A program made the position numbers and the translations under genes. From positions 3,697-67,696 of the forward strand of contig JBJXHC010000038.1 in assembly GCA_046160825.1 (NCBI GenBank): 64,000 bases of DNA. The letters are read 5' to 3'. Origin of the DNA: Bacteroidota bacterium. Its GTDB lineage: Bacteria > Bacteroidota > Ignavibacteria > UBA10030 > UBA6906. A model generated the notes under the pieces. It was not told where the DNA came from and searched no databases. It was given only the letters and a program-made list of their open reading frames with translations. This document shows, in pieces, positions 39,796 through 43,040 of the stretch (within the stretch, counting starts at the first letter, position 1; every line of letters begins with the position of its first letter).

Positions 39796-41457
39796 TCATT
39801 TCATCATTGGCACGTTCACACCCTGGCTCTTCGCATTCTCAATCGCACGTTCATACCCTGCATCAGCATGACGGATAATTCCCATTCCCGGATCGTACGT
39901 GAGCACATGCTGTAATCTTGCTTCTGCTTCCTTGGTGCCATCAGCAACCACAACCATTCCCGCGTGGATGGAAAGTCCCATACCAACACCACCACCGTGA
40001 TGCACGCTTACCCAGCTTGCTCCACCGACTGCATTGAGCAACGCATTCAGGATGGGCCAATCGGCAATGGCGTCGCTGCCGTCTTTCATTTTCTCGGTCT
40101 CGCGGTTCGGTGAAGCGACAGAGCCACAATCCAAGTGATCGCGTCCGATGACAATCGGCGCTTTCACTTCTCCTCGTGCAACAAGGTCATTGAATATCTT
40201 CCCCATCTTTGCTCGCTCACCGTAGCCGAGCCAGCAAATCCGCGCCGGTAATCCCTGGAAGTGTATCTGCCTCTGCGCCTTCTCTATCCAGCGGCACAGC
40301 GGCTTGTTCTCCGGAAACGTCTCGAGAATAGCCCGGTCGGTTCGATAAATATCATCCGGCTCACCGGACAATGCCGCCCAACGGAATGGCCCTTTTCCAT
40401 CACAGAATAACGGTCGAATATACTCCGGCACAAAGCCAGGAATATCAAAAGCATTGGTCAAACCGTTTGCCAGCGCCTCACCGCGGATATTGTTGCCGTA
40501 ATCGAACGTTATTGCGCCCCTTTTCTGTAGGCCCAGCATAGCCTGTACATGTTCAACGATGGACGCCTGTGCAAGTTGCATGTACTTCTTCGGATCTGAT
40601 TTGCGGAGGGCAAGCGCTGCCTCATATGAAATGTGGGCGGGGACGTAACCGTTCAGCGTATCATGCGCCGATGTTTGATCGGTGAGAATATCAATCTTGA
40701 TGTTGCGAGCAAGAAGCTCCGGCAACACCTCGGCAGCATTCGCAAGCAGAGCAACGGACTTGGCTTCCTTGAGTTCTTTGGCGGTTTGCAAAATGAGCAA
40801 CGCTTCATCGAGTGATGTTGCCATCTCATCGACGTATCCGCTCTTGAGTCTCTTCTCGATGCGTGAGCGATCGACTTCAATAGCGAGACATGCTGCACCG
40901 TTCATCGTTGCGGCGAGAGGTTGCGCGCCTCCCATGCCCCCAAGTCCGGCGGTGACGAGGAGTCTGCCAGCAAGGCTCCCCCCATAATATTTCTCCGCAC
41001 ATGCAGCAAACGTTTCGTATGTCCCTTGGAGAATCCCTTGTGTGCCGATGTAAATCCAGCTCCCCGCGGTCATCTGACCGTACATCGTAAGGCCGAGAGC
41101 TTCGAGCCGACGGAACTCATACCCCGTCGCCCATTTGGGGACGAGCATACTGTTGGAGATGAGGACACGAGGAGCGTTCTCGTGCGTTTTGAAAATACCA
41201 ACGGGCTTACCGGATTGTACGAGCAGCGTCTCATCGTTTTCCAGGCTCTTTAAGCTGCGCACGATTGCATCGTAGCATTCCCAATTGCGTGCCGCTTTGC
41301 CGACGCCGCCGTAGACAATCAACTCATCTGGCTTTTCTGCAACGTCGGGATCAAGATTATTCATCAGCATACGTAGCGCTGCTTCCTGTATCCAGCCTTT
41401 GCAGGAGAGGGTGGTACCGTGGGGGGCTTTGATATTTGTCTTAGCTACGTCAAGCAT
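39796..41457 (-). CDS. hutU: Urocanate hydratase
   Basis: [23 protein letters not shown] and the rest of the sequence are HutU-like. The track ORF start (41517) was trimmed to Met 41457 because the extension [20 protein letters not shown] is a translated REP hairpin. Confidence 0.9.
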
Positions 41458-41482
41458 GAGCAATGCTCCATTGATTTCCTTT

Positions 41483-41552
41483 GACTTGCCACGAGCTTCA
41501 GCTCGTGGATATTTCAAATGCCAAAATATACCAGAGGGCTTTAGCCAAATCC
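41483..41552. repeat. REP-like repeat, left copy (palindrome 41489-41508)
   Basis: The repeat sits in the hutU 5' leader and abuts the tnpA stop. Confidence 0.7.
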
Positions 41553-41563
41553 ATAAGGGGTCT

Positions 41564-42001
41564 CTAGCCCTTCCTCAAAGCGGTGAATCCATACTCTTTC
41601 AGAAATTCATCATATTCCTCTGCGAACGACTTCTTCCGGTGGTGTTCTTCCTGATTCTTGATATACTCCCTCACGATATCAATCGTCGAATCGCTTACTG
41701 ATACTGCAATATACTCATCTTGCCACTCAAGCTTCGTGGGCATGAGTTGTTGTTGATTGAACCAATGTGATGATTCTCCTTTGAGAAGCTGAGCCACCTT
41801 GGCAATGGACTGATCCGCTCCAAGAGAAATCAAGGAGTGAATATGCTCGATATGTCCATTGATGAAGTCGAGATAAATCCCTTTTGCACGGGCGTTCTCT
41901 CTGATATGTGTGAACAACTGCAATCTGATCTCTTTGCTTAAAAGCGGCTCCCGGTTTTTTATTGACCAGATCAGATGAATCCAGATTCTGAGATATGGCA
42001 T
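41564..42001 (-). CDS. tnpA: IS200/IS605-family Y1 (HuH) transposase, REP-associated tyrosine transposase-like
   Basis: It is 145 aa with a HuH motif (HIHSLISL), LLKGESSHW, a Tyr region ([11 protein letters not shown]) and [11 protein letters not shown], matching the TnpA_IS200 (PF01797) pattern. There is no tnpB partner. Confidence 0.85.
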
Positions 42002-42147
42002 TTTTGTGTTTGGGTTAAAACCCCCAGTGGTGGGGAGTTGGGTTTCTTGTCCACGACCTAAAGGTCGTGGCTAGTCCTTTGGGAAAACTTGACTCTCCGG
42101 ACGCTCGGCAGAGCGGAAAGGTTATGGCTTAGTCTTCATTGGGGCAT

Positions 42148-42214
42148 GACTTGCCACGAGCTTTAGCTCGTGGATTTCCGAAAGTCTCAAAACGCTGAGG
42201 GCTTTAGCCAAACC
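42148..42214. repeat. REP-like repeat, right copy (palindrome 42154-42173)
   Basis: It is a direct repeat of 41483-41552 and abuts the RidA lipoprotein stop. Confidence 0.7.
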
Positions 42215-42216
42215 TC

Positions 42217-42699
42217 TCACTCCCCCTTCCACGCCACCACCGCAATTTCCACGTTCGCCTGTCGTGGCAACTCGCTTACGGCAACAGCTGTACGGGCGGG
42301 ATAGCTCTCCTCCGGGAAATAGCCACCGTAGATCAGATTCATCTTCGGGTAGTCATTCATGTTCTTGAGATAGACCGTTGCGTTGATGACGTGGGATGAA
42401 TCGTACCCGGCGGCGCGGAGGATATGCATGAGGTTGTTCAGCACCTGCCGTGTTTCGGCTTCGATATTCTCGTTGCGCACCGCGCCGGTTTCCTGGTCGA
42501 GGGCGATCTGTCCTGAGACAAAAAGGAACGGGCCAACCCGCACCGCCGGACTGTACGGTCCGATCACATCTACAGGTTTCACAATTTGCTTTCCCTCGTA
42601 CCGGGACATTTCCTCCTGGACAATCTTCCGGATATTCTCCTCATCCGATCCGCAACCGAACAGAAGACACGATACCGCAATGATAGCAAGTTGTTTCAT
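42217..42699 (-). CDS. RidA/YjgF family protein with a lipoprotein signal (periplasmic or envelope-located)
   Basis: The lipobox is MKQLAIIAVSCLLFGCG. The RidA fold is indicated by PYSPAVRVGPFLFVSGQ and the C-terminal EIAVVAW. Confidence 0.8.
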   Translation of the reverse strand: MKQLAIIAVSCLLFGCGSDEENIRKIVQEEMSRYEGKQIVKPVDVIGPYSPAVRVGPFLFVSGQIALDQETGAVRNENIEAETRQVLNNLMHILRAAGYDSSHVINATVYLKNMNDYPKMNLIYGGYFPEESYPARTAVAVSELPRQANVEIAVVAWKGE

Positions 42700-42701
42700 G
42701 A

Positions 42702-43040
42702 TCAGTCTCCTGCGACGAGCGTAATCTCAAGACGTTCTTCGGAGGTCTCTTCATCCTTCACCACCTTGAACGAAACAACCGCATGAAGCGCAATCATCGT
42801 CGTTGCGTCATCGCTCTCAACGGTGATGAAATCAGTCCCCACCTTTGCAAGTTTGCCCAGATTGGTTTGTTTGCCCACGTGCTTCGCAAGCATCTCTTTG
42901 AACGTCCCGGCAGATTGTGTTGTCTTGGGTTTCTCCGTCTTCTGGGACTTCTGTGCAACTGCCGGCACAACAAGCAGGGCGCAAAAGAGAATGGCAACAA
43001 GTGTTTTCAACAACGATGATCGTTTCATGTGTTCCTCCAT
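42702..43040 (-). CDS. Small secreted hypothetical protein
   Basis: It has a signal peptide (KRSSLLKTLVAILFCALLVVPAVAQ) and is about 108-112 aa. It is tightly packed (a 2-nt gap) with the RidA gene. Confidence 0.5.
   Translation of the reverse strand: MEEHMKRSSLLKTLVAILFCALLVVPAVAQKSQKTEKPKTTQSAGTFKEMLAKHVGKQTNLGKLAKVGTDFITVESDDATTMIALHAVVSFKVVKDEETSEERLEITLVAGD

Follow-up and report, generated by a model that had tools for sequence, protein, structure and literature searches.

The 64,000-nucleotide stretch of a Bacteroidota bacterium genome analysed here (hereafter the window, to whose full 64 kb all window counts of hairpins and units refer) carries tnpA, a gene encoding a Y1 HUH transposase, between hutU and a gene of the ridA family. 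The locus is probably REPtron-like, with a resident and vertically inherited TnpA of the TnpAY1 subclass 1.2 encoded between two inverted cognate units of ~66 nucleotides (nt) and with a third unit beyond. A preliminary description had taken it for a REP locus (repetitive extragenic palindromic sequences) of the kind kept by REP-associated tyrosine transposases (RAYTs), and not for a classical insertion sequence (IS). That reading is borne out by flanking units at fixed distances, by extragenic doublets without tnpA in related genomes, by synteny and by purifying selection; it does not hold for the protein, which is not a RAYT by sequence, or for the foot of the units, which is not GT[AG]G. 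It is most likely that the locus works like a RAYT/REP system, yet with a protein from outside the RAYT family. The parallel with REPtrons and with RAYT systems of REP doublets forming hairpins (REPINs) is drawn from the architecture, the covariation of the hairpins, the stems shared within single genomes, the occurrence of doublets and a mode of evolution of tnpA that resembles that of housekeeping genes.

The units follow a general plan of a 7-nt foot (overall pattern TGA[A/C]T[T/A]G), a GC-rich 8-bp hairpin with a TTYA loop (hairpin 1), a variable spacer of ~25 nt and a mini-hairpin of the GGGCTTTAGCCC type (hairpin 2), which together make up ~66 nt. They are arranged in the order A(+), tnpA(-), B(-), C(+), with A and B forming an inverted pair around tnpA (Table 1). 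Two blocks recur according to a repeat finder. The longer, TGACTTGCCACGAGCTT[C/T]AGCTCGTGGAT, has 29 nt and lies at 41482-41510 and 42147-42175, its copies differing at one position, and the shorter, GAGGGCTTTAGCCAAA, has 16 nt and two identical copies, 41534-41549 and 42197-42212; the hairpin pattern is matched three times in the window against 0.03 expected, and the 16-mer twice against 0.02. The preliminary description had spoken of two 66-bp direct repeats. Their hairpin blocks are real and above chance, but the repeats are not uniform: aligned over 70 and 68 nt, A and C agree at 59 positions and need four gaps, the hairpin blocks being kept and a middle of ~23 nt having diverged. The "further hairpin" it had placed upstream of tnpA does exist, at 42051-42070, and is in fact a third copy of the unit in inverted orientation, as it aligns with the hairpins of A and C only after reverse complementation and then shows a mini-hairpin of its own, GGGTTAAAACCC. 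When the window was searched for 8-bp hairpins of any sequence with a TTYA-type loop, only units A, B and C came up, and any perfect 8-bp hairpin with a 4-nt loop occurs four times against 0.6 in shuffles. Folded as single-stranded DNA (ssDNA), hairpin 1 of A, B and C forms as predicted, with unit A giving the 8-bp stem and 4-nt loop at z = -3.1.

Several other candidates within the window were set aside. The CGCTC-GGCA-GAGCG hairpin of the preliminary description is present at 42102-42115, at a level within chance, the 71-nt spacer in which it lies folding with z = -0.45. Chance was also the verdict on a hairpin-2-like match (18899), on a perfect hairpin that has neither foot nor hairpin 2 (12831) and on a foot-plus-arm half-site, GAGTTGCCACGAC, which lies on the (-) strand within ridA (42262-42274) at a distance of ~50 nt from unit C, since ~1.4 such half-sites are expected in the window and several were seen.

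The arrangement around tnpA recurs in relatives of the gene. The homologous loci were chosen by protein similarity alone and comprise 80 metagenome loci among the matches listed plus three from assemblies; flank counts are for the first 81 loci, and some other counts use 83. With a strict finder (8-bp stem with at most one mismatch, TTYA loop, within 120 nt of tnpA), for which the chance expectation is ~3 hairpins per million positions, at least one flanking unit was found in 75 of the 81 loci. There is a unit(+) upstream and a unit(-) downstream in 39 loci, a downstream unit only in 25, an upstream unit only in 6 and a unit on neither side in 6, with one side lost at the contig end in the remaining 5. 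Upstream, hairpin 1 mostly ends 47-68 nt ahead of the ATG, where unit B of the window sits at the family mode of 50 nt, and downstream it mostly starts 30-60 nt past the end of the protein match, with unit A at 56 nt; both the position and the stem type of unit A are those of the family mode. Hairpin 2 is positioned 10-20 nt ahead of the ATG. The commonest combination of stems, CCACGACC upstream and CCACGAGC downstream, is that of the window, and at least three units in alternating orientation, again as in the window, are found in 34 of 83 loci. The direct pair A/C is owed solely to an optional third unit, and the geometry that is conserved is that of the inverted pair A/B.

When the downstream regions of all 81 loci are aligned with MAFFT, without filtering, the consensus is TGAATTG-CCnCGAGC-TTTA-GCTCGnGG...GGCTTTAGCC. 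Across this alignment 95.9% of hairpin-1 cells are paired, against 26-47% in slid controls, and two-sided changes occur in seven of the eight hairpin-1 pairs; compensatory cells number 184 compared with 58.6 in shuffles, and none of 500 shuffles reaches the observed value. As many as 45 distinct 8-nt stems occur, and the foot has the consensus TGAATTG, in which T is invariant at -3 and reaches 92% at -2, and G has ~80% at -1. The upstream and downstream stems of a locus are different in 28 of 38 cases, and the stems track the sequence of the protein, TnpA identity being 67-70% for pairs with identical stems and 59-61% where the stems differ by at least 3 nt. Few of the covarying pairs are G-U, as would be expected of a structure that is needed in DNA.

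These hairpins could instead be mainly RNA or transcription elements, acting in the control of tnpA from its 5' and 3' untranslated regions (UTRs), or stabilising or attenuating the mRNA of neighbouring genes, hutU among them, with the tnpA-less copies being relics or recruited. As ridA, tnpA and hutU all lie on the (-) strand, their co-transcription, if it takes place, would carry each of the three units into the RNA; hairpin 2 is close to the ATG, the end of the open reading frame (ORF) and a motif resembling hairpin 2 overlap in 38 of 83 loci, and control through 5'-UTR structure is known from IS200 (PMC4513863). However, the rarity of G-U pairs and the tracking of TnpA by the stems make such a role very unlikely, as do the presence of units in both orientations to flanking genes and the duplication of doublets within genomes. 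Rfam returned only sub-threshold chance matches and no terminator-like T-run stands above background at the locus, and scans for sigma-70 promoters and intrinsic terminators found nothing above shuffles, promoters from the Fibrobacteres-Chlorobi-Bacteroidetes group (FCB) being outside the scope of the tool.

The ends of the homologous genes have features of their own. Many homologues among L122-L201 have their tnpA stop codon in hairpin 2' (GGGC-TAA-AGCCC), where it makes up the loop, and in the window a decayed version of hairpin 2', GGGGTCTCTAGCCC, surrounds the tnpA TAG stop at 41557-41570; 8 nt beyond it, unit A has its hairpin 2' intact. Tandem arrays of a foot plus a partial hairpin-1 arm are found beside complete units at L007 72-160 and at L093 3890-3960 and 4800-4860, and more such arrays lie in the tnpA flanks of L135, L133, L138, L137, L142, L143, L148 and L122. 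Examples are GTCGTGGCAATTAA four times in L007, a 31-nt repeat four times in L142 and CAGTTGCCACGAGCTT twice in L138, where there is CAG microhomology. The window holds no tandem foot-plus-arm array. The arrays could arise from slippage at the hairpins or from abortive cleavage and joining.

Judged from its sequence, the tnpA product is an IS200-like TnpAY1 of subclass 1.2 and not a canonical RAYT. The preliminary description was right to see a single-ORF Y1 TnpA with HuH and Tyr motifs and without a TnpB partner: Pfam Y1_Tnp (PF01797) is matched with E 1.7e-25 and 89.9 bits against a cut-off of 23, over profile positions 4-121 of 121; the HuH motif (H53-I-H55) and the catalytic Tyr (Y113) both align with those of IS608 TnpA and are invariant in an alignment of 28 relatives; and no tnpB adjoins tnpA, its neighbours being hutU and ridA. 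Other motifs are W93-Q94 and Y113-IKNQEEHH, the latter being of the class 1, Y---Q type and not the Y---NP of RAYTs. The NCBIfam IS200 model NF033573 is passed with 61.5 bits against a cut-off of 55, and the REP_Tyr_transpos (RAYT) model is failed with 16.8 bits against a cut-off of 80. A sequence search of solved structures matched the TnpA of IS608 and ISDra2 and not E. coli TnpAREP (4ER8). The AlphaFold AF2 model has a predicted local distance difference test score (pLDDT) of 85, and its top 30 PDB matches are all Y1 transposases, with ISDra2 and IS608 TnpA ranking first and TnpAREP 4ER8 at rank 29 (Foldseek E 1.5e-6, 15% identity).

The subclass was assigned by comparison with the published motif table (PMC6006769) and not with the hidden Markov model of its authors; the window protein has EHIH (family consensus DHVH), WQ, YIKNQEEHH and a length of 145 amino acids (aa), where the table gives DH[IV]H, WQ, YIKNQKEHH, ~148 aa and a C-terminal tail of ~30 aa. 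The tail conserved here is KKSFxEEYDEFMxKYGF. There are more than 1,500 protein relatives, the closest being 88% identical, and they are found mostly in Ignavibacteria, Bacteroidota, Zixibacteria and unclassified metagenome-assembled genomes (MAGs). Most of the 90%-identity protein clusters among them occur on 1-3 contigs.

The closest homologue is encoded on L202 (GCA_964633855.1), a contig whose genes are collinear with those of the window and follow the order His_Phos – ... – aminotransferase – 110-aa ORF – unit(+) – tnpA – unit(-) – hutU – SpoIIE. Identity between window and L202 is 91% for HutU and 88% for TnpA, about 74% for the aminotransferase, 60% for the SpoIIE-domain protein, 51% for His_Phos, 45% for the 112-aa ORF and 29% for the 205-aa ORF, and tnpA has a ratio of nonsynonymous to synonymous divergence (dN/dS) of 0.08. 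The same types of stem are kept at the same positions, with spacers that have diverged beyond recognition. Both ridA and unit C are absent from L202 (window 42147-42702 against L202 3165-3420); therefore ridA and C, not tnpA, are the variable part, and it is misleading to say, as the preliminary description did, that the element was inserted between hutU and ridA, as L202 keeps unit-tnpA-unit-hutU without them. Vertical inheritance is read from this one orthologous pair, and no hutU/ridA synteny was found among the 200 loci retrieved, only in L202, which was added later.

The nucleotide comparison of the pair adds a further observation. The tnpA genes (window 41564-42001, L202 3492-3929) have 84% nucleotide identity and a dS of 0.85, and hutU has 77% nucleotide identity and saturated dS, with a dN about equal to that of tnpA (0.07). 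The synonymous sites of tnpA are thus unusually conserved, and constraint at the level of nucleic acid, codon usage or more recent exchange are possible reasons.

Alternatively, the locus could be an ordinary autonomous IS200-type IS, in which the hairpins are the left and right subterminal ends and the whole element of ~730 bp transposes. The protein would suit such an element, as it passes the IS200 model, carries the Y---Q motif and has IS608 and ISDra2 TnpA as its nearest solved structures, and units A and C are direct repeats that bracket tnpA. The homologues also lie in differing gene contexts, and their 57-88% identity across several phyla could mean horizontal spread. Nevertheless an ordinary IS is unlikely, as the conserved flanks are inverted and not direct (39 of 81 loci; B and A in the window) with the third unit optional, and among the hairpin matches listed tnpA-less units outnumber tnpA-linked ones by ~14 to 1. 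Synteny is kept with neighbours that are only 29-74% identical, tnpA is intact under the low dN/dS given above, and the homologue P0049 occurs in one place in a complete 5.2-Mb genome. No relatives were found in 2.9 million viral contigs and no close copy on a plasmid, the best match among 72,556 plasmids being 39% identical and on 600-kb Bacteroidota replicons. For the subclass, a mean of 1.7 copies per genome has been published, with just 36% identity between copies in the same genome (PMC6006769).

Units are not limited to the flanks of tnpA. A scan of one genome per species with the pattern CCACGA[G/C]CT-NN-AG[C/G]TCGTGG matched at least 120 loci, and among the matches listed six have a tnpA homologue nearby. 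About 85 of those listed are in FCB-type and neighbouring MAGs and form a complete unit with foot and hairpin 2. The ~35 others of the 120 listed, in GC-rich Actinobacteria, Proteobacteria and similar, are bare palindromes without foot and hairpin 2 in coding-looking DNA, and were judged to be chance since their number fits the random matches expected. Among the same listed matches, 78 of 83 complete tnpA-less units lie outside open frames of at least 150 aa, and 36 of 53 adjacent pairs are convergent doublets (+ then -), mostly with 70-100 nt between the hairpins.

At least 11 assemblies have two to four separate unit loci, and in two, the Caldithrix MAG DYKB01 and the assembly CAZWLN01, whole doublets are repeated on different contigs with 88-89% identity, each half keeping its identity (L015 226-485 against L056 6357-6615; L040 6686-7014 against L064 2082-2407). 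In the flanks of tnpA, 12 hairpins were found at distances above 1 kb; 10 are complete units, and such far units share stems with the local tnpA flanks in L141, L143, L147 and L167.

It is conceivable that TnpA is instead a domesticated nuclease with another role in the host, such as the processing of ssDNA at forks, with the flanking hairpins as its own loading or regulatory sites and the dispersed units arising via recombination or slippage. High conservation and vertical inheritance are what such an enzyme would show, the number of unit copies is low, the tandem partial foot-plus-arm arrays suggest slippage at hairpins, and diverse roles in ssDNA editing have been proposed for the subclasses that do not behave as IS (Quentin et al.). 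Yet stems peculiar to a genome occur both in its dispersed units and in its tnpA flanks, and whole doublets are duplicated on different contigs, and this explanation is accordingly regarded as quite improbable.

Two further observations concern the dispersed palindromes. The Bacteroidetes MAG JAPLDO01 has "double-foot" hairpins (CAATTG-hairpin-CAATTC) at four loci (L009, L053, L060 and L070), which recall the double-foot REPs described for RAYT subclass 2.4. In two DPANN archaeal MAGs (L039 1085-1130 and L074 3463-3506) the same 20-mer sits within a longer palindrome, GTGCTTGCTAAAA-CCACGACCTTTAGGTCGTGG-AGCACGTTGAG, that is identical between the two; without foot and hairpin 2, it is probably an unrelated structured element.

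For the REPtron-like locus, it is most likely, by analogy with enzymes of known biochemistry, that TnpA recognises the hairpins of the units in ssDNA and is responsible for their upkeep and occasional spread. We infer this action from the biochemistry of IS608, ISDra2 and E. coli TnpAREP, in which a hairpin is bound and a few bases of the foot are read. TnpA would bind hairpin 1 in ssDNA, for example in the lagging-strand template, and perhaps also the smaller hairpin 2, which has the CTTTAG core too. It would read the TGAATTG-like 5' foot and the asymmetric TTYA loop, with cutting and rejoining through Y113 and the metal site of H53/H55. The units would thereby be maintained, and units or convergent doublets (REPIN-like and without tnpA) would occasionally be copied to other intergenic sites, with the tnpA gene itself remaining in place. 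Binding, cleavage, a single-stranded substrate, mobility and a benefit to the host are in this sense all what we infer.

A number of points weigh against a REPtron-like interpretation. The action of TnpA on the units is predicted from sequence and analogy, and the protein scores as IS200-like with the family models. The window has cognate units only at the tnpA locus and none elsewhere in its 64 kb, and no further units were found in 264 kb flanking the tnpA-less unit loci. An indirect estimate gives roughly 10-15 unit loci per tnpA, as ~6 of the 85 listed unit loci carry the gene, which is well under the number of classical REPs; as a rough estimate this is a small repeat family and not one of hundreds as in Pseudomonas or E. 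coli. A window that holds only tnpA-linked units is what this low density predicts for 64 kb, and its only convergent pair is A/B, with tnpA in between. The similarity of the duplicated doublets runs 30-45 nt or more past the feet, so that the unit as defined may not be the mobile entity. Finally, the gene context varies among homologues, with L122 (85% identity) adjoining a type-I-restriction-like gene, and the varied contexts may mean that the whole module moves occasionally.

Table 1. Coordinates of tnpA, the flanking units and the neighbouring genes in the window.
Feature	Position	Strand	Description
tnpA	41564..42001	(-)	ORF, 145 aa, intact Y1 HUH transposase, TnpAY1 subclass 1.2
Unit A	41482..41549	(+)	3' of tnpA stop
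Unit A foot	41482-41488		TGACTTG
Unit A hairpin 1	41489-41508		CCACGAGC-TTCA-GCTCGTGG
Unit A hairpin 2	41537-41546		GGCTTTAGCC, within GAGGGCTTTAGCCAAA (41534-41549), after the variable spacer
Unit B	42010..42077	(-)	directly upstream of tnpA start
Unit B hairpin 2'	42012-42023		GGGTTAAAACCC
Unit B hairpin 1	42051-42070		CCACGACC-TAAA-GGTCGTGG
Unit B foot'	42071-42077		CTAGTCC (reads GGACTAG in unit orientation)
B/C spacer	42078..42146	(.)	~70 nt separating the feet of units B and C, which face each other
Unit C	42147..42212	(+)	extra copy; ends 4 nt ahead of ridA stop codon
Unit C foot	42147-42153		TGACTTG
Unit C hairpin 1	42154-42173		CCACGAGC-TTTA-GCTCGTGG
Unit C hairpin 2			inside GAGGGCTTTAGCCAAA (42197-42212)
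hutU	39796..41457	(-)	urocanase; context gene, Pfam urocanase domains
ridA family	42217..42699	(-)	Endoribonuclease L-PSP domain; context gene

The position of unit A has a bearing on the start of hutU. The mechanical ORF of hutU begins at TTG 41517 and runs across hairpin 1 of unit A, and it was correctly recognised in the preliminary description as an over-extension, the true start being ATG 41457, as backed by the Pfam urocanase domains (from residue 9) and by the alignment of orthologues. Unit A is 25-75 nt upstream of the hutU start codon, and it may affect the expression of hutU. On the other side, the N-terminus of the ridA product, MKQLAIIAVSCLLFGC, is a lipoprotein-type signal, its lipobox being read off the sequence, and the start of ridA overlaps the stop of the upstream 112-aa ORF (ATGA, 42699-42702). 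The practical consequence for the source genome is modest, with a structured repeat upstream of the hutU start and another abutting the ridA stop.

Of transposases that hosts have kept along with a population of small non-autonomous repeats, REP/RAYT is the principal case, and nearly all that is known of it comes from Proteobacteria and class-2 RAYT proteins. Tentatively, subclass 1.2 together with the bipartite, TGAATTG-footed units might form a previously unrecognised REP/REPIN-like system that originated on the IS200 side, as a second, independent domestication of a Y1 transposase or as the missing link to RAYTs that was suggested by Bertels et al. Such a system may be widespread in Ignavibacteriota, Bacteroidota, Calditrichota, Zixibacteria and neighbouring phyla, and may have a recognition logic of its own, with two hairpin subtypes for two orientations plus the mini-hairpin with a CTTTAG core. 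If this is true, the REP/RAYT phenomenon reaches the FCB superphylum, and domestication has happened more than once or is older than the split of IS200 and RAYT. It would also provide a compact 145-aa enzyme with a defined, covarying ssDNA substrate, in which the reading of a hairpin plus foot by Y1 enzymes could be followed, and it would correct the entry "no REP" in the literature as well as the label that named homologues carry at NCBI, "IS200/IS605 family transposase".

That entry concerns the known group to which the protein is closest. TnpAY1 subclass 1.2 (Quentin, Siguier, Chandler, Fichant 2018; PMC6006769) is described as IS200-like in sequence and not IS-like in behaviour; it is found in Cyanobacteria and Bacteroidetes and is listed as "REP: no", with no terminal secondary structures. 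The present proteins are alike in motifs, length, C-terminal tail, low copy number and a Bacteroidetes-type distribution. They are unlike in that so many of the loci have a flanking unit, which contradicts the published absence of REPs and not the membership of the subclass. The automatic search of Quentin et al. was aimed at canonical REPs with a 5' GT[AG]G foot, and the present units are without such a foot. No later papers on repeats of subclass 1.2 were found among the open-access papers searched. The clade may also be identical to "IS200 Group 3" (Bertels, Gallie and Rainey 2017; PMC5581495), which it is likened to by description only and not by sequence; that group behaves in a RAYT-like manner, with no duplicates and no plasmid copies, and its flanking 16-mers are abundant in the genome (21 occurrences), the structure of the repeats not being described.

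Closest in both sequence and structure are IS200, IS608 and ISDra2 of subclass 1.1, which likewise recognise subterminal hairpins and short guide or cleavage sequences near the foot. Their direct, same-strand ends, frequent carriage on plasmids and frequent tnpB are features not seen here, and of their near-identical multiple copies there is no sign within the 64-kb window, which has one copy of tnpA. The CGTC-tagged repeats of Chlorobi and Bacteroidetes (PMC3733652) were considered and ruled out, as the present units end in neither CGTC nor GTAG.

It is with the E. coli REPtron, in which TnpAREP/RAYT is accompanied by REPs and bacterial interspersed mosaic elements (BIMEs) (Ton-Hoang 2012, Messing 2012; PDB 4ER8), that the architecture is shared. 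Both have a single Y1 HUH gene, inverted hairpin flanks that are sometimes extended into alternating arrays, two hairpin subtypes in opposite orientations, a short conserved 5' foot and a common fold, and extragenic copies of the present units occur in related genomes. They differ in the protein, which here has Y---Q--HH against Y---NP and is 15% identical, and in the foot, which is TGAATTG-like against GT[AG]G; the present unit is also bipartite, with a second small hairpin ~25 nt away, its copy number is apparently tens or fewer against hundreds, and its hosts are of the FCB group against Gammaproteobacteria. The REPIN-RAYT system of Pseudomonas (Bertels and Rainey 2011; PMC3116915) is similar in its convergent doublets, which have an inner spacing of ~70-100 nt and are duplicated whole within a genome, and in its single-copy, vertically inherited transposase. 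Unlike in Pseudomonas, the doublet populations here are far smaller, their mobility is putative, and both the clade of the transposase and the sequence of the repeats are different.

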